In this document: one piece after another, positions 3,280 to 30,085 of the stretch
Numbering within the stretch: the stretch's first letter is position 1
How the letters are laid out: every line of letters starts with the position of its first letter
DNA from: a virus
Strand: one strand, 5' to 3'
Length of the DNA stretch: 37,774 nt
Virus record (IMG/VR): IMGVR_UViG_3300045690_000033
Made by a program: the position numbers and the translations under genes
Notes under the pieces: generated by a model
What the model was told of the DNA's origin: nothing
The model's input: only the letters and a program-made list of their open reading frames with translations
Databases searched by the model: none

Positions 3280-3594
3280 ATGTTTAAAAGTCAACTAGCA
3301 CAAAATAGATACAAAGAGCGGTTAAAAAGATCCTTAATCGACCAGCTTGATCAACAAAATATTAGTATTACACCGTTTCTCGATACGATAGATAGATATA
3401 TTAATCTCTGGGAAACGGCTATTTCTTTAGAAGAAGATATCGCTGATAATGGTGTGCGATTGAATAACGGTAAGAAAAATGAATCTGTTGCTTTATTAGT
3501 ATCAGTAAATAAACAAATGGGATTAATGCTTGATAAATTAGCGATCACTCCAGAGATAGTGGGTGATGCAAATGAACCAATTCCTGAGTTATAA
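3280..3594 (+). CDS. terS: Terminase small subunit (P27-family-like)
   Basis: ATG at 3280 after GAGAGGAGG. About 104 aa, directly upstream of and overlapping terL. Sequence style matches P27-type TerS. Confidence 0.7.
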   Translation: MFKSQLAQNRYKERLKRSLIDQLDQQNISITPFLDTIDRYINLWETAISLEEDIADNGVRLNNGKKNESVALLVSVNKQMGLMLDKLAITPEIVGDANEPIPEL

Positions 3595-5260
3595 ACATAT
3601 AAGGAAATGGTTTGACGCGATTGACGCTCGAGAGGTTGTTGTTTGTAAAGACCAATTGCTGTTAAAAAAATATTTGGAAAAACGAGTTTTTACACGGGAG
3701 GATATTTATTTTGACGAACAAATGGTTGAAGATTCTATTAACATTCCTGCCACTTATTTTCCTTTTGAATTGATTCCTTGGGAAAAATTTGTGCAGTGCT
3801 TTATCTATGGTTGTCGATGGAAAAAAGATCATACACTCGTTTTTAATAGATTCCTCACGTTAATGGGGCGCGGAAACGGTAAGACAGGTTATGCTTCATG
3901 GAACAACTTCTTTCTACTGACTGCAAAACATGGAATTAAAAATTATGATATTGATATTTTTGCCAACAATGAATCCCAAGCAAAGACAAGTTTTGAGGAT
4001 GTCTACCAAGTCATAAAAACAAACCCAGGTTTAAAAAAATCATTTTATATTTCGAAAGTATCTATTAGAAATTTAGCAACAAATAGTGAACTTAGATATA
4101 ACACTGCAAACGCTCGTACGAAGGATGGAAAACGTCCAGGGGCCAATCGCTTCGATGAAATCCATGAAAATGAAGACTACGCAACGATGAATGTTGCGAC
4201 TTCAGGCGGCGGTAAAATCCAAGACTACAGAGAATTCTACGATACGACAAACGGCGCTGTTAGAGGCGGACCATTAGATGATCTAATTGAAGAATCAATG
4301 ATGATTTTTTCGGGTGAATTAGGAATTGATAAAGAAGGTGCAGAATTTTCAAGTTTATTCCCGTTCATTTGTCGTTTAGACGATGATACGGAAGTTGATG
4401 ATCCGACTTTATGGGAAAAAGCTTGTCCAACAATCAATTACAACCAAGATCTAAAACGAAAGATGTTTCAAGAATACTCACAAATGCAACGTAATTCAGG
4501 GTTAAGATTAACATTTATGACTAAACGTATGAACAAACCTATGGAAGATACTAGGTTTGCTGTGGCGACGTACGAAGACGTTCTTCACACAAGAGAAAAA
4601 GAGTTTCCTGAAAGAATGGAAGAAGTTATTGGAACAGTTGACTTTGCAGATCGACGAGATTTTGCGTCATGTGGGCTACTTGGGAAGTATGAGAAAGATA
4701 TTTATTTTAAACAGCACACGTTTATTCATGAATCTGCATTGAAACTCCAAAATATAAAGAGAGAAATTATCGATATTTCATTGGATCAAGGGAAATCACA
4801 AATTGTTCACGGGAAGAATATTGAAGCTGAATACATCGTCGATTGGTTTCTAGAACAGTCAAAAAAGCATTATATTAAAAAGATTGCCATGGATATGTTC
4901 AGAGCTAAAATACTGAAACCTGCATTGGAAGAGGCCGGCTTTAATGTTGAGATTGTCCGAAGCGGTAGTGTTACGCACGGCATGCTTAAAGATTTAGTTG
5001 ATGATTTATTTATTAATCAGCGTTTATTTTTTGGAGACGACGCTATTATGCGGTGGTATTGTATGAATGTTTACGAAGAACATATTGCAAATGGAAATAT
5101 TAGATATGAAAAGATAGACGGAGAAACCAGAAAAACAGATGGTTTCTTTTCTTTTTTGCATGGACTTAATTTTATCGATGATATCTATGATTCTGCACCA
5201 ATCAAAATAAAAAATTTAACCAGTAATGCTGCTGGTGGTTTTAAACCATTAGTTTTTTAG
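3563..5260 (+). CDS. terL: Terminase large subunit
   Basis: 565 aa. Walker-A-like LMGRGNGKT, a DEIHE-type Walker B, and a C-terminal nuclease region. The start could also be ATG 3566 or 3572. Confidence 0.9.
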   Translation: MMQMNQFLSYKHIRKWFDAIDAREVVVCKDQLLLKKYLEKRVFTREDIYFDEQMVEDSINIPATYFPFELIPWEKFVQCFIYGCRWKKDHTLVFNRFLTLMGRGNGKTGYASWNNFFLLTAKHGIKNYDIDIFANNESQAKTSFEDVYQVIKTNPGLKKSFYISKVSIRNLATNSELRYNTANARTKDGKRPGANRFDEIHENEDYATMNVATSGGGKIQDYREFYDTTNGAVRGGPLDDLIEESMMIFSGELGIDKEGAEFSSLFPFICRLDDDTEVDDPTLWEKACPTINYNQDLKRKMFQEYSQMQRNSGLRLTFMTKRMNKPMEDTRFAVATYEDVLHTREKEFPERMEEVIGTVDFADRRDFASCGLLGKYEKDIYFKQHTFIHESALKLQNIKREIIDISLDQGKSQIVHGKNIEAEYIVDWFLEQSKKHYIKKIAMDMFRAKILKPALEEAGFNVEIVRSGSVTHGMLKDLVDDLFINQRLFFGDDAIMRWYCMNVYEEHIANGNIRYEKIDGETRKTDGFFSFLHGLNFIDDIYDSAPIKIKNLTSNAAGGFKPLVF

Positions 5261-5275
5261 AGAGGAGGTGGAGTA

Positions 5276-6454
5276 GTGGGAGTTGTCCAAAGAGCAGTAG
5301 ATTACTTTACTAAGCGTTCAGTTGTTTCGATTGAAGAATATTTTTGTAAACTTCAAGTGGACTATGTTTATCGGAAGTTTGCAATTGAGACTTGTATTGA
5401 TTTAATTGCTAATGCATTAAGTAAAGCAGAATTCAAATCTTACGAAAAAGGTAAAAATATAAAAAACGAGATGTATTATCGGTTAAATGTTTCACCGAAT
5501 GCTAAAACAAATGCGACGGAGTTTCGTAAAAAAATGATTCGAAGACTTATTTTTTACAATGAAGTATTAATCGTTTCGCCGTCAAGTTCAACCTCAGAAT
5601 TATTTGTAGCCGATAGTTGGAATGTTACTGAATATGGGTTAAAAGATGATGTATTTTCTCAAGTTCAAGTTAATAATATTGTTTTAGAGAAAACTTTCAA
5701 AGAAAGTGACGTTATCTATATTAAGTATGCTGACGAACATATACGTCAATTGGTAGACGCCTATTATGGGGCATACGGAAAGCTAATTTCATCAGCAATG
5801 AATGTATACAAACGATCCAATGCACGAAGATATGTGCTGAAAGGCGATTTATTCAGGCCGCAAGATGATACGGCACAAGGCCAAATAAACGAAATGATGA
5901 CTTCTCAATTCAAATCATTTATGGAAGCAGACAATGCAGGAGCAGTGTTTCAGTTAGACAACAAAGCAGAGTTGCTTGATTTCAGCGGGAATTTCCAATC
6001 GAATTCACGAGATATAAAAAACTTAATAGATGACATCTACGAGATGACCGCGGCAGCGTTTCACGTTCCGAAAAACTTACTCAAGGGAGATATGAGTGGT
6101 TTATCGGATCAAGTGGACGCTTTTTTGATGTTTGAAATCATACCGATAGCTGAATTAATACAAGATGCTTTTAATGCAACGATTTATAGCATGGATGAAT
6201 ATTTATCTGGTGATTATTTGAGAGTCGATACCACCATGATAAAAATAGCTAGCTTCAAAGATTTGGTTGATGCCATCGATGTTGGCATTCGAAATGGCGT
6301 ATTTACGATTAACGAAGGCAGAGAACGCGTGGGTAATGATCGCTCCGATAAGCCAATGGCGGACGAGATTTTCATAACTAAAAATAATGAACAGTTATCG
6401 AAGGGAGGTGACGCGAATGACGACAATGAAGACGGTTCTAGCAGTCAAAAATGA
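5276..6454 (+). CDS. Portal protein (HK97 family)
   Basis: 392 aa directly after terL. GTG start after GGAGGTGGAG. Confidence 0.85.
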   Translation: MGVVQRAVDYFTKRSVVSIEEYFCKLQVDYVYRKFAIETCIDLIANALSKAEFKSYEKGKNIKNEMYYRLNVSPNAKTNATEFRKKMIRRLIFYNEVLIVSPSSSTSELFVADSWNVTEYGLKDDVFSQVQVNNIVLEKTFKESDVIYIKYADEHIRQLVDAYYGAYGKLISSAMNVYKRSNARRYVLKGDLFRPQDDTAQGQINEMMTSQFKSFMEADNAGAVFQLDNKAELLDFSGNFQSNSRDIKNLIDDIYEMTAAAFHVPKNLLKGDMSGLSDQVDAFLMFEIIPIAELIQDAFNATIYSMDEYLSGDYLRVDTTMIKIASFKDLVDAIDVGIRNGVFTINEGRERVGNDRSDKPMADEIFITKNNEQLSKGGDANDDNEDGSSSQK

Positions 6455-7100
6455 AAACACAGCGAAGCCAGCAGTTTATATTCAAGGATTTATCGGGTCT
6501 AGTTGGTTTTTTGAAGGGAATACGGATAAAGGCATCAAAGCGATTTTAGACAATTTAGGCAACAAGGAAGAAATCGATGTTGTAATTAATTCTAATGGTG
6601 GTGATGTTTTCCAAGGAATTGCAATTGGAAATCTGCTAAAAGCAAATAGCGCAAAAATTAATATCATCATTAACGGTGTGGCCGCAAGCGCAGCCTCTAT
6701 CATTGCAATGGCGGGAGATACTATTCAGATATATCCAAACGCTCAATTAATGATCCATAGAGCCTCTACCTGGGCGGAGGGAAATGTCGATGTGTTCCGA
6801 CAAACAGCGGATCAACTGGAATCAATAGACAAATCAGTAAAGGCTTCTTATCAATCACGATTTAACGGAACTGATGATGAATTAGAAAATCTACTTGTTG
6901 CCGAAAAATTCATGGACGCAGAAACTGCTTTGAAATATGGATTGGTAGATGAAATTATTGATGCGACCCCAATTACCCCTTTGCAAGAAGACGATGAAGA
7001 AGACGAAGAAAGTATCGAAACGGTATTAAATCAAGTGAACGAAGAGCGTGAGAAAAGAATGGCTGCTTTTGCAGCAGCATTAGAAAAAGCATTTGGATAA
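6417..7100 (+). CDS. Prohead maturation protease (ClpP/S14-like)
   Basis: ATG 6417 after GGGAGGTG. Motifs INSNGGDVFQG, GVAASAASIIAMAGD, MIHRAS. Acidic C-terminal scaffold-like tail. Confidence 0.85.
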   Translation: MTTMKTVLAVKNENTAKPAVYIQGFIGSSWFFEGNTDKGIKAILDNLGNKEEIDVVINSNGGDVFQGIAIGNLLKANSAKINIIINGVAASAASIIAMAGDTIQIYPNAQLMIHRASTWAEGNVDVFRQTADQLESIDKSVKASYQSRFNGTDDELENLLVAEKFMDAETALKYGLVDEIIDATPITPLQEDDEEDEESIETVLNQVNEEREKRMAAFAAALEKAFG

Positions 7101-7113
7101 GGAGATGTAAATA

Positions 7114-8238
7114 ATGACAGTAAAAAATTTAAAAGGTGTTTCAGCAACGAGTGATAAATTAATGAGTGCATTTAAAGACGGAAACGAAGAAAACTTTGGA
7201 GAGGCAATGGTTGTCTTATCGAACGAAATTCAAGATCGAATTTTAAAAGAAGCTCAAACCGCAAATCAGGACCAATTAGTTCTAATGAACCGTGGTCAAC
7301 GCGTACTTACTAGCAAAGAAACGAAATTTTATAACGAAGTCGTCAATAACGAAGGATTTGCTGGCGTAGAGGAATTAGTACCGGCAACAGTCTTTGAACG
7401 TGTATTTGAAGACTTAACAAACGCCCATCCATTGCTTCAAAAGATTAATTTTGTGAATACAACTAGCGTTACGGAATGGATCGTCGGTCGTGGTGTGAAC
7501 CCTGCTTGGTGGGGGAAATTATGTGAAGACATCAAACAGGTATTGGACAATGGGTTTGATGTGATCAACATGAAACAATTCAAATTATCAGGTTATATGC
7601 CTTTATGTAAGGCAATGCTTGATTTAGGTCCTGAATGGATTGACCGCTATGTTCGGACTGTTTTAGTTGAATCGCTGCAAATCGCTCTAGAACAAGCCAT
7701 TGTAGACGGTACAGGTAAAGATCAACCTATCGGTATGATGCGTGATATGTCCTCTCAAACAGACGGAGAGTACAAAGAGAAGACTGCAGAAGCAGTTACC
7801 TCTTTAGATGCAACCGTCCTCGGAGGTCTAATGGCTCGTTTATCAAAACTAACAATTGAAGGTGTGACGGACCCAATTTACCGCAATGTCAACCCTTCTG
7901 ATGTTGTGCTAATTGTCAACCCAACTGATTATTGGTCAAAAGTCTTTCCTGCAAAAACAGTTTTAACTGCTAATGGTGAGTACGTTCAAACACTCCCTGT
8001 TCCAGTTTCGGATTTACAATCAGTAGCTGTGCCAGAAGGTAAAGCTGTAATTGGTGTAGCTTCAGACTACTTTATGGGGCTAGGATCAACTCTAAAGATT
8101 GAAGCTTCTGACGAGTACCACTTCGTAGAAGACGAACGTGTCTACTTGGCTAAACAATATGCGAATGGTTTGCCAAAACGAAATGATAGTTTCATTGTGT
8201 TGGATATTTCTAAATTAGCACCTACGCCGTCAAAATAG
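7114..8238 (+). CDS. Major capsid protein (HK97 fold family), short form
   Basis: 374 aa after the protease, in the HK97-type gene order. Confidence 0.85.
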   Translation: MTVKNLKGVSATSDKLMSAFKDGNEENFGEAMVVLSNEIQDRILKEAQTANQDQLVLMNRGQRVLTSKETKFYNEVVNNEGFAGVEELVPATVFERVFEDLTNAHPLLQKINFVNTTSVTEWIVGRGVNPAWWGKLCEDIKQVLDNGFDVINMKQFKLSGYMPLCKAMLDLGPEWIDRYVRTVLVESLQIALEQAIVDGTGKDQPIGMMRDMSSQTDGEYKEKTAEAVTSLDATVLGGLMARLSKLTIEGVTDPIYRNVNPSDVVLIVNPTDYWSKVFPAKTVLTANGEYVQTLPVPVSDLQSVAVPEGKAVIGVASDYFMGLGSTLKIEASDEYHFVEDERVYLAKQYANGLPKRNDSFIVLDISKLAPTPSK

Positions 8239-8300
8239 TGGCCCCTGAGGTAGGAAAAGTAACTCCTACCACTGATGGGGCGTCAATAGAATTAACGTAA
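7114..8300 (+). CDS. Predicted long form of major capsid protein via -1 frameshift (+21 aa: IVAPEVGKVTPTTDGASIELT)
   Basis: The -1 frame is open from 8214 to TAA 8298..8300. The added tail matches the one reachable from the major tail gene at 14 of 21 positions. Confidence 0.5.
8232..8281 (+). promoter_or_regulatory. Putative -1 frameshift signal: A_AAA_TAG slip site, 5-nt spacer, two-tier hairpin
   Basis: AAAA at 8232..8235 abuts stop TAG 8236..8238. Hairpin outer stem is 8241..8245/8277..8281 (gcccc/ggggc); inner stem is 8249..8254/8265..8270 (ggtagg/cctacc); loop is 10 nt. The same architecture occurs at 10562..10614. Confidence 0.55.
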
Positions 8301-8312
8301 GGAGGAAAAGGA

Positions 8313-8495
8313 ATGGCACGAACATTTGAAATTGACAAAAAAGATGGGACCAAAGTTTCTGAAGGAGCTAGCCCGTTAGCAATTACTGGACTAACAGCAG
8401 GAACGGTAGTAAAAAAGGGTGACTATATCGCCGTTGCAGTAGAGTCTGGAAAAAAATCTGATCCCGTTGATATTCCAGCTTTCACGGTCAATTAG
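8313..8495 (+). CDS. Small Ig-like/decoration-type protein (60 aa)
   Basis: Strong RBS AAGGAGG. Beta-rich sequence ...SPLAITGLTAGTVVKKGDYIAVAVE...VDIPAFTV resembles the C-terminal two-thirds of a bacterial Ig-like domain. It is in the same frame as the capsid -1 extension. Confidence 0.6.
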   Translation: MARTFEIDKKDGTKVSEGASPLAITGLTAGTVVKKGDYIAVAVESGKKSDPVDIPAFTVN

Positions 8496-9989: not shown

Positions 9990-10571
9990 ATGGTAAATAC
10001 GATTGTGACAACATTTGATAATGTAAGTATTAAAAAAATCGCCTTCATGTTTAAAGGTGCAGAGTCAGCAGACGTGACTGATTGTAATGGTCAGTTGGAA
10101 GGCGAAACAGAAATGCAAACAATTGAAAAAAAATGCGGGGCGGCGGTCGTGAAGACCAAGTCCAAACCTGTAGGAATGACAGTGACCATTACCGCACATG
10201 TACCTGTCGTCGTGTTCCGAAATTTCTATGGCTTAAAACATGATGAACGATTAAAACCGGGCATCTATTCATATGGACCTGATTCAGTAGGTATCGATTT
10301 TGCTTTAGCTGCAGAGGTTGTCGACGATTTCGAAGAAAACTCAAAATTATTAGCTTTCTTATCGGCAACATCGAATACGGGTTTAACCTTTACTATCGAA
10401 AATGGTGCAGATGAAGTTGCGGCGTTAGAACTAGAAACTAAAATTATGACTGATCAGTTTGGAAAGTATTATCATGAAGCGATTGTTGCTGAATTAGATG
10501 AAGACCTAACGGATGCATGGATGAACACGTTGTCGCCTGAAGTGATTAAAAAGGCAGACGCGGGAAAATAA
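9990..10571 (+). CDS. Major tail protein, short form
   Basis: 193 aa immediately before the G/GT chaperone pair. RBS AAGGAGAG. Confidence 0.75.
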   Translation: MVNTIVTTFDNVSIKKIAFMFKGAESADVTDCNGQLEGETEMQTIEKKCGAAVVKTKSKPVGMTVTITAHVPVVVFRNFYGLKHDERLKPGIYSYGPDSVGIDFALAAEVVDDFEENSKLLAFLSATSNTGLTFTIENGADEVAALELETKIMTDQFGKYYHEAIVAELDEDLTDAWMNTLSPEVIKKADAGK

Positions 10572-10633
10572 CAGCCCCTACTATAGGAAATGTTACTCCT
10601 ACAGTTGATGGGGCAACCATAGACTTAACTTAA
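9990..10633 (+). CDS. Predicted long form of major tail protein via -1 frameshift (+21 aa: ITAPTIGNVTPTVDGATIDLT)
   Basis: The -1 frame is open from the slip site to TAA 10631..10633. Confidence 0.55.
10562..10614 (+). promoter_or_regulatory. Putative -1 frameshift signal: G_GGA_AAA heptamer at the stop codon, 5-nt spacer, two-tier hairpin
   Basis: Classical X_XXY_YYZ heptamer GGGAAAA at 10562..10568 with zero-frame codons GGA AAA, followed by TAA. Hairpin outer stem is 10574..10578/10610..10614 (gcccc/ggggc); inner stem is 10581..10587/10598..10604 (6 of 7 bp); loop is 10 nt. Confidence 0.65.
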
Positions 10634-10660
10634 AAGAGAGGGATTCCTCTCTTTTTTTAT
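10634..10660 (+). terminator. Intrinsic terminator after the major tail gene
   Basis: Stem aagagagg/cctctctt (10634..10641 / 10646..10653), loop gatt, then a T run. Confidence 0.75.
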
Positions 10661-10678
10661 TTGAAAGGGGAACTATCG

Positions 10679-11053
10679 ATGATTGAAGAATTATTAGAAG
10701 ATTATTCAAAACTAGAATTAAACAATGGGGAGATTGTAACCCTTGAACCGAAGTTGAATTTAAAAAAATTAATGTTAATCAATCGGGATTTCAATACAAA
10801 TGAATTTGCGAAAATGTCTGTAGGCAATGAGCAAATGGATGTCAGTGTCATGCAAGGAGCAAAAGCAGTTTATGTGGCCTACAGACAAGCGAATATGAAT
10901 GAATACATGAGTTTTGATGAATTTATTGATCATTGGTATTTTGATATGGCTCAAGCAACAATGATCTACAATCTCATGATGTTTAAAAAAGTTCAAAATG
11001 ACTACCAGAAAGCTTTTGAGAAGGCAAATAAAGAAAAAAAGCTTCAAAAATAA
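10679..11053 (+). CDS. Tail assembly chaperone (G-like)
   Basis: ATG 10679 after AAAGGGGA. Position is between the major tail protein and the tape measure. Confidence 0.75.
   Translation: MIEELLEDYSKLELNNGEIVTLEPKLNLKKLMLINRDFNTNEFAKMSVGNEQMDVSVMQGAKAVYVAYRQANMNEYMSFDEFIDHWYFDMAQATMIYNLMMFKKVQNDYQKAFEKANKEKKLQK
11035..11041 (+). promoter_or_regulatory. A_AAA_AAG -1 slippery heptamer for the G-T fusion
   Basis: Zero-frame codons AAA AAG at 11036..11041. The -1 frame is open from there into ORF 11056..11247. Confidence 0.7.
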
Positions 11054-11055
11054 AA

Positions 11056-11247
11056 ATGCCAAAATTTCAAGTGAAAACGTGGGTTGATGTCTATTCGATG
11101 TTGACGGACGTTTTTTCTTTGTCTCACGAACAGGCTATGAGTAATTTGCCGTTAGACGACATCCTTCAAATTGCATACAACAAGCAGGCTTATGACGGAT
11201 GGATGAGTTATGCGGTTAGAAAAGAACAAGAGAAAGGAGGAAAATAA
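11056..11247 (+). CDS. T segment of the tail chaperone (expressed as a G-T fusion by -1 frameshift)
   Basis: Lies in the -1 frame relative to G, with no stop between the heptamer and 11056. Confidence 0.65.
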   Translation: MPKFQVKTWVDVYSMLTDVFSLSHEQAMSNLPLDDILQIAYNKQAYDGWMSYAVRKEQEKGGK

Positions 11248-29281: not shown

Positions 29282-30085
29282 GTGGCGATAGCTTTGAGGA
29301 AAATTGCGAAAGCAAATCGCGGTTTCAAAGGTATTTGGATACCAGCAAGTTATTGGCTTGATGAGAATCTAACAGATAGAGAAATCCTCTTTTTGGTTGA
29401 AATTGATAGCTTGGATATTGGAGAAGATGGCTGTTTTGCGAGCAATAAACATTTTTCCGATTTCTTTGGCCTTACTGCCAGCAGATGTTCCCAAATCATA
29501 AAAGGATTAAAAGATAAAGGATATGTTGAGGTTGAATACGAATATGGTCCAAACAAAGAAATACTAAAACGATCTATGAGGGTAGTAAATAAATTAAAGC
29601 CCCCTATTAAATATTCTAAAGGGGGGTATTTAGAAAATGCCAAAGGTAGTAATACATCTTTTAGTAATACAGCTATTAATAAAGACCATATGTCGAGCAA
29701 GCCCGACTCAATACCTTATTCAAAAATTATTAGTCATTTGAATTCAACTGCTGAAAAGAATTTTAAAGTTACTCAGAAGTGGAAGGACTTGATAAAAGCT
29801 CGTTGGAATGAGGGACAACGATTGGATGATTTTATAAAAGTTATTGATGTTAAGTCAAGTCAATGGCTGAAAGATCAAAAAATGAATAAGTACCTCAGAC
29901 CTCAGACGTTGTTTTCAAATAAGTTTGACGAGTATTTGAACGAACGACAAGCGCATTCATATAGCAATAAACGACGGAGAGAAACGGTCCCAAGTCACAT
30001 TTTAAGTAATAAAAAAAAGAAAAATGACGTAGATGTATTGTTAGAAGCAGACAAAATAATTGAGGAGCGCCGCAAACATGAATGA
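29282..30085 (+). CDS. Replisome organizer / DnaD-like replication protein
   Basis: N-terminus IWIPASYWLDENLTDREILFLVEI...GLTASRCSQIIKGLKDKGYV (phage rep-organizer type). The C-terminus carries the conserved phage domain (...YLRPQTLFSNKFDEYLN). Confidence 0.8.
   Translation: MAIALRKIAKANRGFKGIWIPASYWLDENLTDREILFLVEIDSLDIGEDGCFASNKHFSDFFGLTASRCSQIIKGLKDKGYVEVEYEYGPNKEILKRSMRVVNKLKPPIKYSKGGYLENAKGSNTSFSNTAINKDHMSSKPDSIPYSKIISHLNSTAEKNFKVTQKWKDLIKARWNEGQRLDDFIKVIDVKSSQWLKDQKMNKYLRPQTLFSNKFDEYLNERQAHSYSNKRRRETVPSHILSNKKKKNDVDVLLEADKIIEERRKHE

Follow-up and report, generated by a model that had tools for sequence, protein, structure and literature searches.

Matching 21-residue tags at the putatively recoded ends of a phage's capsid and tail-tube genes probably form the A-B hairpin of a split FN3-like domain

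Two genes in the viral DNA of IMG/VR record IMGVR_UViG_3300045690_000033 (37,774 nucleotides, referred to here as the window), those for the HK97-type major capsid protein and the major tail (tube) protein, end at their very 3' ends in sites at which a -1 slip of the ribosome would append a short peptide. Each of these peptides, which we call tags, spans 21 codons of the -1 frame, and the two are identical at 14 of 21 residues. We consider it likely that an FN3-like domain is split here between two products, with the tags constituting its N-terminal β-hairpin (strands A and B) and a separate 60-residue protein, the catcher, supplying strands C-G. Sequences and coordinates of these elements are collected in Table 1.

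The tail gene reads GCG_GGA_AAA_TAA at its 3' end, in which a canonical X_XXY_YYZ heptamer abuts the stop codon, just as a first-pass annotation of the window had described it (10562-10571); the two exactly 21-residue extensions with 14 shared residues that it had counted are likewise borne out by the sequence. Its view that the capsid gene has the same layout stands for the A_AAA next to a stop codon (here TAG), the 5-nucleotide spacer and the GCCCC/GGGGC stem, but not for the heptamer. The capsid gene ends in CCG_TCA_AAA_TAG, and because the P-site codon TCA is unable to re-pair at GTC, A_AAA (8232-8235) is the only slippery element at this site; a -1 slip would be possible there for tRNA-Lys with the stop codon in the A site. 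In the zero frame the products terminate in ...APTPSK (capsid) and ...KKADAGK (tail), and the expected junctions of the long forms are ...PTPSK-IVAPEVGK... and ...ADAGK-ITAPTIGN..., with the junction peptides ...PTPSKIVAPEVGK... and ...ADAGKITAPTIGNVTPTVDGATIDLT. A hidden Markov model (HMM) of the tag finds just these two sites in the 37.8-kb window (E 1.7e-10 and 7.8e-9), values that are circular since the window's two tags are among the 27 from which the HMM was built. The next match (E 1.2), on the minus strand at 29488-29541, was dismissed as weak and antisense within an open reading frame (ORF) of 267 residues.

Independent support that the cassette of slip site, hairpin and tag is beyond chance comes from its recurrence in dozens of other phages. 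The DNA pattern AAAATA-N3-GCNCC-N28-GAYGGNGC was found in 105 IMG/VR stretches, about 85 times on the stop codon of an ORF of 180-420 residues, and nearly all of these cassettes have a -1 ORF of exactly 21 codons. Their peptides are very diverse, with the consensus I-x-A-P-x-x-[VIL]-x-x-x-P-T-x-D-G-A-x-[IV]-x-x-x, and their commonest slip context is G_TCA_AAA_TAR. When one genome per species was scanned, the pattern matched mostly by chance; tags were present in 8 of 79 loci, 7 of them at E<1e-4, and the true tag loci came from Lactobacillales only (Enterococcus, Lacticaseibacillus, Schleiferilactobacillus, Weissella and Ligilactobacillus). The arrangement occurs in phages with unrelated capsid and tail families. 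At locus L041 (about 50% GC), for example, the capsid gene ends in GCG_TCA_AAA_TAG and the -1 frame gives IDAPSALNAEPTADGANVTVG, 21 residues and a stop, followed by a ribosome-binding site (RBS) and a homologue of the small ORF, and its tail gene ends in TCG_GGG_GAA_TAA, where the -1 frame gives ITAPASLKATPTADGAQISVG, again 21 residues and a stop.

Comparison of nearest-neighbour cassettes indicates that the tag frame is under protein-coding selection: substitutions number 24, 20 and 70 at its codon positions 1, 2 and 3, and synonymous and non-synonymous codon changes stand at 54/42 in this frame versus 17/80 and 13/81 in the other two. Tags are also closer to each other within a phage (12.9 of 21 residues) than between phages (9.7 of 21). 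Moreover, the peptide is reached by routes other than a -1 slip. In Efquatrovirus SANTOR1 the capsid and tail genes end in CCC_TAG_T and the +1 frame encodes STPPVVGQVT(T/P)...SATIELS, 21 residues and a stop; the tail protein of phage phiEf11 ends in frame in ...SVTPTFDGASTELS; and in L042 an internal in-frame tag, APAPTGLEASPTENGATVTAD (4453-4509), lies in a sheath-like protein (387-residue ORF, 4165..5328), in a phage of a different type whose catcher bears a C-terminal tag of its own.

The RNA downstream of the slip sites also appears to be selected. In both genes a stem starts 5 nucleotides past the AAA codon, within the 5-9 nucleotides expected of a stimulatory structure, and each GCCCC/GGGGC outer stem encloses an inner stem; this is the two-tier arrangement of the first-pass annotation, with loops that RNAfold puts at 8 nucleotides, not the 10 originally given. 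The 47-nucleotide elements fold at -20.9 kcal/mol for the capsid (z -3.0, 2 of 200 shuffles fold as well) and -16.8 kcal/mol for the tail gene (z -2.75, 3 of 200). Among 39 cassettes of less than 85% mutual identity, the central pair of the outer stem links an Ala codon to a Gly codon through their synonymous third positions at a distance of 36 nucleotides, and this pair is Watson-Crick in 32 of 39 lineages (C-G in 19, A-T in 7, G-C in 4 and T-A in 2), compared with a permutation mean of 15.6 of 39 (p<1e-5). The covariation score of the ungapped alignment is 0.187 versus 0.096 when shuffled, a value that none of 500 shuffles reaches and that exceeds all slid controls; of the outer-helix cells, 78.7% are paired. 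The compensatory changes that the first-pass annotation had proposed to seek in related phages are present in the outer stem; the register of the inner stem is not conserved. Together with the coding selection in the tag frame, this covariation supports its proposal of a -1 slip at the end of both genes. A stop codon immediately 3' of the slippery AAA is near-universal in the tag family, which suggests that a tRNA-Lys slip in the P site competes with slow termination.

Hairpins that follow two very highly expressed genes might act as RNA elements only, as mRNA stabilisers, processing sites or a means of translational coupling, with the open -1 frame incidental. Their stability and covariation, and the position of the capsid hairpin just upstream of the catcher RBS, are compatible with such a role, but we regard it as very unlikely, since the same peptide occurs in frame where no hairpin is needed and via a +1 site with different nucleotides, the third-position and synonymous excess is specific to the tag frame, and no Rfam family matches at the hairpins. 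We find it just as improbable that the tags are a decaying relic of full-length frameshift-added Ig-like extensions, no longer expressed or useful, and that the 60-residue protein is independent of them. Such extensions are mobile (PMC5009743), and 40 close IMG/VR relatives of the window (L001-L040; tail protein 77% and capsid about 88% identical) have neither a tag nor the 60-residue ORF, so that the whole module is dispensable and replaceable. A relic, however, would hardly retain exactly 21 codons across dozens of diverged lineages, a synonymous excess in the tag frame, two tags per genome, and a slip site, spacer and covarying stem that are all kept. In L001-L040 the capsid and tail proteins share an in-frame poly-threonine end, ...TTTTTTTQA (e.g. 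L001, 560-760 and about 3530-3560), which is another route to a common head/tail appendage.

The first-pass annotation had taken the shared peptide for a common docking handle, and comparative evidence (co-occurrence, unsplit relatives, and structure prediction with Foldseek superposition) supports this and names the partner. In profile searches over all fetched loci, with counts taken at E<1e-4, a catcher is present in 52 of 52 loci with at least two tags and in 0 of 131 tagless loci, L001-L040 among them; single-tag loci that have no catcher are almost all truncated by a contig end. An exhaustive profile search among 1.84 billion proteins places the catcher family at 273 clusters at 50% identity.

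In L047/L126 and in L076, where the tail gene ends in CAG_TCA_AAA_TAG, the -1 frame beyond it is uninterrupted from the tag into a catcher homologue, giving KIVAPVVGNVTPKADGASVELSHEFLNTFKIYKKEG...PAFTVPAVEG, 87 residues. An Enterococcus avium prophage (L043/L044) has 21-residue tags on its capsid and tail genes and the small ORF after the tail gene. In L043 the coding sequence is split: a stop codon, an RBS and an ATG occupy the very point at which the frame of L047/L126 and L076 stays open. The difference between split and unsplit versions at the junction is limited to these three elements. An Ig-like or FN3 extension that is complete in cis (about 80-100 residues) is found only in L047/L076; the window adds 21 residues and stops.

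AlphaFold2 (AF2) was given 8235-8492 without the TAA as one covalently fused chain, together with a 121-row alignment. The resulting model has a mean predicted local distance difference test score (pLDDT) of 94.3 and a predicted template modelling score of 0.83; tag residues 1-21 reach a pLDDT of 95-98 and form strands at 5-12 and 15-21, with the catcher strands after them. The fused tag and catcher are modelled with confidence as an FN3 sandwich to which the tag supplies strands A and B. Foldseek against the PDB returns FN3 domains as the top matches (Tencon/centyrin, FNDC3a, NCAM FN1 and sDscam FNIII1) with template modelling (TM) scores of 0.6-0.69 over about 85-100 columns, and against predicted viral structures (BFVD) it returns FN3 domains of phage tail proteins over about 88-94 columns with TM up to 0.75; model and superposition are those of a seven-stranded FN3 sandwich. 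Small catcher-like proteins of Staphylococcus and Enterococcus phages in BFVD match over about 59-66 of roughly 90 FN3 columns. A search of PDB sequences with tag plus catcher found only a weak partial match to the MpAFP RII Ig-like repeats, and no Pfam domain is on record for any of the 120 catcher homologues listed, all of them 'hypothetical'. BFVD also holds lipase/acylhydrolase, hexosaminidase and β-helix proteins of Staphylococcus phages G15, MCE-2014 and SA11 that match over ~63-65 columns (root-mean-square deviation 1.2-1.5); these large proteins, whose matched span is that of bare catchers, may be attached through a half-domain of the catcher type.

In the window the catcher ATG (8313) lies in the reading frame of the capsid tag, with four sense codons separating it from the tag stop (…ELT TAA GGA GGA AAA GGA ATG…, 8298-8315), a coincidence in all probability because the two are out of phase in other phages. 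A -1 slip at the capsid gene followed by readthrough of the tag TAA into the catcher (…ELT-stop-GGKGMART…) would produce a covalent, full FN3 domain and leave the tail tag as a leftover. This cis fusion accords with the phase and with the unsplit versions found elsewhere, and yet we judge it quite unlikely. In L041 and L043, tag and catcher ATG are either in different frames or separated by more stops, the strong RBS and the ATG of the catcher are conserved, and the tail tag and 36 C-terminal tags of catchers end at position 21 with nothing downstream to which they could be fused. At the tail site, an intrinsic terminator that begins in the tag stop codon leaves no room for any further addition in cis. 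Readthrough into an in-phase catcher was rejected as a general mechanism, the ORF being out of phase in other phages.

We propose the following model for the split domain. Some of the ribosomes that reach the end of the capsid or tail-tube gene would slip by -1 on A_AAA, in competition with termination at the adjoining stop codon and with the assistance of the hairpin 5 nucleotides downstream; the anatomy of the sites, the covariation and the coding selection all point to this step. The slipped ribosomes would append exactly 21 residues and then stop, as the sequence dictates. The 60-residue protein, translated from its own strong RBS, would be an incomplete sandwich alone, and binding of a tag would complete its fold, so that some subunits of the head and tail tube would come to bear an FN3-like knob, either once the lattice is assembled or without regard to its assembly; the unsplit homologues, the fused-chain AF2 model and the co-occurrence suggest this step. 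By analogy, the knob would most likely mediate weak adhesion to cell-surface or environmental polymers, a role that Fraser et al. reportedly proposed in 2006 for phage Ig-like domains.

A precedent lies in Enterococcus phage phiEf11, whose capsid protein ORF10 runs as two bands that differ by about 3 kDa; a -1 extension of 21 residues was put forward to account for them (Stevens et al. 2016, PMC5221750), and the bands are an indirect hint of a long form. The cassette is the same as that of the window, with TCA_AAA_AAA_TAG followed by a hairpin and with a -1 frame that would add exactly 21 residues (IEAPKVESVIPTTDGASIVLS). The authors saw a one-off capsid extension, and did not remark on the in-frame tag of the tail protein or on the complementary half-domain at the N-terminus of ORF16. 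The open-access full texts yielded this as the sole report of the cassette; the split-domain reading was not found in them, and they hold nothing relevant on split or complemented decoration domains, of which an earlier description elsewhere is possible.

Several observations weigh against the split-domain reading. Mass spectrometry (MS) of phiEf11 detected no extension peptides (PMC5221750), which is why its authors called the extension speculative. The capsid slip site of the window is not a canonical X_XXY_YYZ and permits a single-tRNA slip on A_AAA only. Because conserved Ala-Pro and Asp-Gly-Ala codons make up the outer stem, the peptide in part forces its pairing, and only covariation at third positions is free of coding constraint; the inner helix is paired in 49% of cells and its register is lineage-specific. 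The AF2 model of a fused chain speaks to compatibility with one fold and not to affinity in trans, the tag columns of its alignment hold the window's two tags only, and AF2 on the single sequence of tag plus catcher is uninformative (pLDDT 36). Tag plus catcher has no match in Pfam at E<=10, fn3 (PF00041) included. For this phage, frameshifting and its efficiency, substoichiometric display, the binding of tag and catcher in trans and the function of the knob are inferred. Finally, L097, the sole apparent orphan tag among the loci, keeps its tail tag and has a 296-residue ORF in the slot of the capsid tag and catcher (reverse strand, about 4572-5519, 7578).

An orphan tag such as that of L097, where another ORF fills the usual catcher slot, is what one would see if the tag acted alone, as an assembly signal, a linker to a virion or host component, or an adhesin, with no physical tie to the 60-residue protein. 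In the window, too, 2.1 kb separate the tail tag from the small ORF, and a terminator comes after the tag. We nevertheless hold such a role of the tag to be unlikely, as it is opposed by the unsplit relatives that encode tag and catcher as one ORF, by the strict co-occurrence of the two, by the closer similarity of tags within a phage, and by the placement of the tag inside the sandwich by AF2 at high pLDDT.

Frameshift-added Ig-like domains on phage capsid and tail proteins were reportedly described by Fraser et al. in 2006. That Ig-like domains can be added by recoding where capsid and tail genes end is established (review by Atkins et al., PMC5009743). We compared the window with Lactobacillus phage A2 by reading the A2 genome directly. 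As in A2 (gp5A/5B and gp10A/10B), the major capsid and major tail genes are both recoded at the very 3' end, at a slippery ...A_AAA with downstream structure and a β-sandwich product; both A2 genes slip at C_CCA_AAA, a heptamer also present in the tag family (L053). A2, however, adds a complete Big_2 domain (about 85 residues) in cis, whereas the window would add 21 residues amounting to two strands and encodes the other five strands as a separate product that head and tail would share, and neither the tag profile nor the catcher profile matches A2. Listeria phages PSA, A118 and A500 (+1 at CCC_UGA, -1 in cps) are likewise end-recoded in the capsid and tail genes of one phage, and their +1 mechanism at CCC_stop recurs in the Efquatrovirus version of the tag, but the modules they add are different: a HeH domain, a Big_2 domain and a 24-residue acidic tail. 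The verified extensions of PSA and A118 were rejected as instances of the tag, having no match to the tag or catcher profiles.

Two further likenesses concern the completion of a fold. In chaperone-usher donor-strand complementation, as in the proposed model, an incomplete Ig-like fold is completed by one or more strands of another polypeptide, and self-tagged subunits could polymerise. The comparison is by analogy only: two strands (the A-B hairpin) would be donated instead of one G strand to complete an FN3-like fold, without a chaperone, an usher or secretion. SpyTag/SpyCatcher resembles the proposed pair in that a short tag and a truncated β-sandwich reconstitute one domain and cargo can be loaded onto a scaffold, but the tag and catcher are a natural system in which no isopeptide chemistry is evident, though no analysis was aimed at it, and the binding would be non-covalent; the band sizes of phiEf11 do not suggest covalent adducts.

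The catcher of the window is bare, without cargo or a tag of its own. In relatives, catchers are either bare or joined to further parts: Big_2 domains (phiEf11 ORF16), a complete FN3 domain, a HeH-like domain, long poly-threonine tracts or their own terminal tag. Poly-threonine is the catcher cargo in L050 and L144. The HeH/SAP-like domain that frameshifting fuses to the capsid in PSA and A118 (L236/L237) is elsewhere the C-terminal cargo of catchers (P0004, P0008, P0034 and L072). Among the 120 catchers listed, 36 have their own C-terminal tag after a linker of 2-5 residues, and nearly all of them end at tag position 21. Self-tagged catchers would, by analogy, permit head-to-tail chains, and their short constant linkers, like the inter-domain linkers of tandem FN3 arrays, argue against fold-back. 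P0123 and P0124 are two-unit links in which a 'sticky' half-domain at either end flanks an intact domain in the middle. In Staphylococcus phage 812 (Kayvirus; L235, NC_029080 114215-115624) three adjacent genes encode gp155, an Ig-domain protein with an in-frame terminal tag, gp156, a catcher with a Big_2 domain and a tag-like end, and gp157, a bare catcher, under the GenBank labels 'Ig domain containing protein' and 'major tail protein'; their sequences suggest that gp155, gp156 and gp157 may form a chain.

Catcher homologues of 58-75 residues (e.g. SANTOR1_0030 and vB_EfaS-271_11) are widely annotated 'major tail protein' or 'tail tube protein' (PHROG 341), and the phages in question have a separate, genuine tail tube gene. 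The label probably originated with tail proteins whose FN3 domains are fused by frameshifting. MS of vB_EfaS-271 covered 94% of its 7-kDa catcher homologue, which was read as a tail tube protein (PMC7503890).

The window is the structural module of a siphophage or prophage with a low GC content of 36.8%, in which the 60-residue ORF is followed by connector genes, the major tail protein gene, and then the tail chaperones and tape measure (Table 1). The tail-chaperone G/GT frameshift is canonical: the heptamer A_AAA_AAG lies at 11035-11041 (region 11033-11058; genes 10661..11053 and 11056..11247), and the -1 frame from it enters, in phase, the 63-residue ORF starting at 11056.

Table 1. Positions of the structural genes, recoding sites, tags and associated elements in the window
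Feature	Position	Strand	Basis or remark
Portal	5276..6454		first in module order
ClpP-type protease	6387..7100		between portal and capsid gene
HK97-type major capsid protein gene	7114..8238	+	Pfam PF05065 E 1.4e-13; phrog_10 E 3.6e-54; ORF list
Capsid recoding site TCA_AAA_TAG	8230..8238	+	sequence
Capsid tag ORF, -1 frame, IVAPEVGKVTPTTDGASIELT + TAA (8298-8300)	8235..8300	+	sequence; tag HMM E 1.7e-10 (tag included in HMM); AF2; coding selection
Capsid hairpin	8241..8281	+	outer stem 8241-8245/8277-8281, inner stem 8249-8255/8264-8270; RNAfold
Shine-Dalgarno AGGAGG of 60-residue ORF	8300..8305	+	sequence; first base is last base of capsid tag TAA
60-residue ORF (catcher)	8313..8495	+	phrog_341 E 2.5e-12; strands C-G of proposed FN3-like domain
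Major tail (tube) protein gene	9990..10571	+	phrog_117 E 1.8e-15; tail-module position
Tail recoding site G_GGA_AAA_TAA	10562..10571	+	sequence; heptamer 10562-10568, stop 10569-10571
Tail tag ORF, -1 frame, ITAPTIGNVTPTVDGATIDLT + TAA (10631-10633)	10568..10633	+	sequence; tag HMM E 7.8e-9 (tag included in HMM)
Tail hairpin	10574..10614	+	outer stem 10574-10578/10610-10614, inner 10580-82/10603-05 and 10584-88/10597-10601; RNAfold
Intrinsic terminator	10632..10662	+	terminator scan: 10-bp stem and T-run; begins inside tail tag stop codon

On a wider scale, we give even chances to the view that these elements form a natural, portable, non-covalent ligation system of Lactobacillales and Staphylococcus phages, in which a split FN3 domain attaches decorations after assembly to the capsid, tail tube or sheath. 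Tags would be added by -1 or +1 shifts or in frame, catchers would be cargo adaptors, and self-tagged catchers would polymerise head to tail into beaded fibres, as in phage 812 with gp155 as the anchor, gp156 as the extender and gp157 as the cap.

If the split-domain reading is true, it explains why the same short recoded peptide stands on two unrelated virion lattices, and one 60-residue gene product could decorate both head and tail. It would also identify the small ORFs that are widespread in phages of Enterococcus and Staphylococcus under the labels 'major tail protein' or 'tail tube protein', and the 21-residue tag with a catcher of about 60 residues would offer a means of loading cargo on therapeutic phages of these two hosts. 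For recoding, the large covarying family of stop-adjacent A_AAA_TAR -1 sites, with its +1 and in-frame equivalents, would be a natural test set for frameshift signals, and for virion assembly the system would be an instance of natural protein-fragment complementation.

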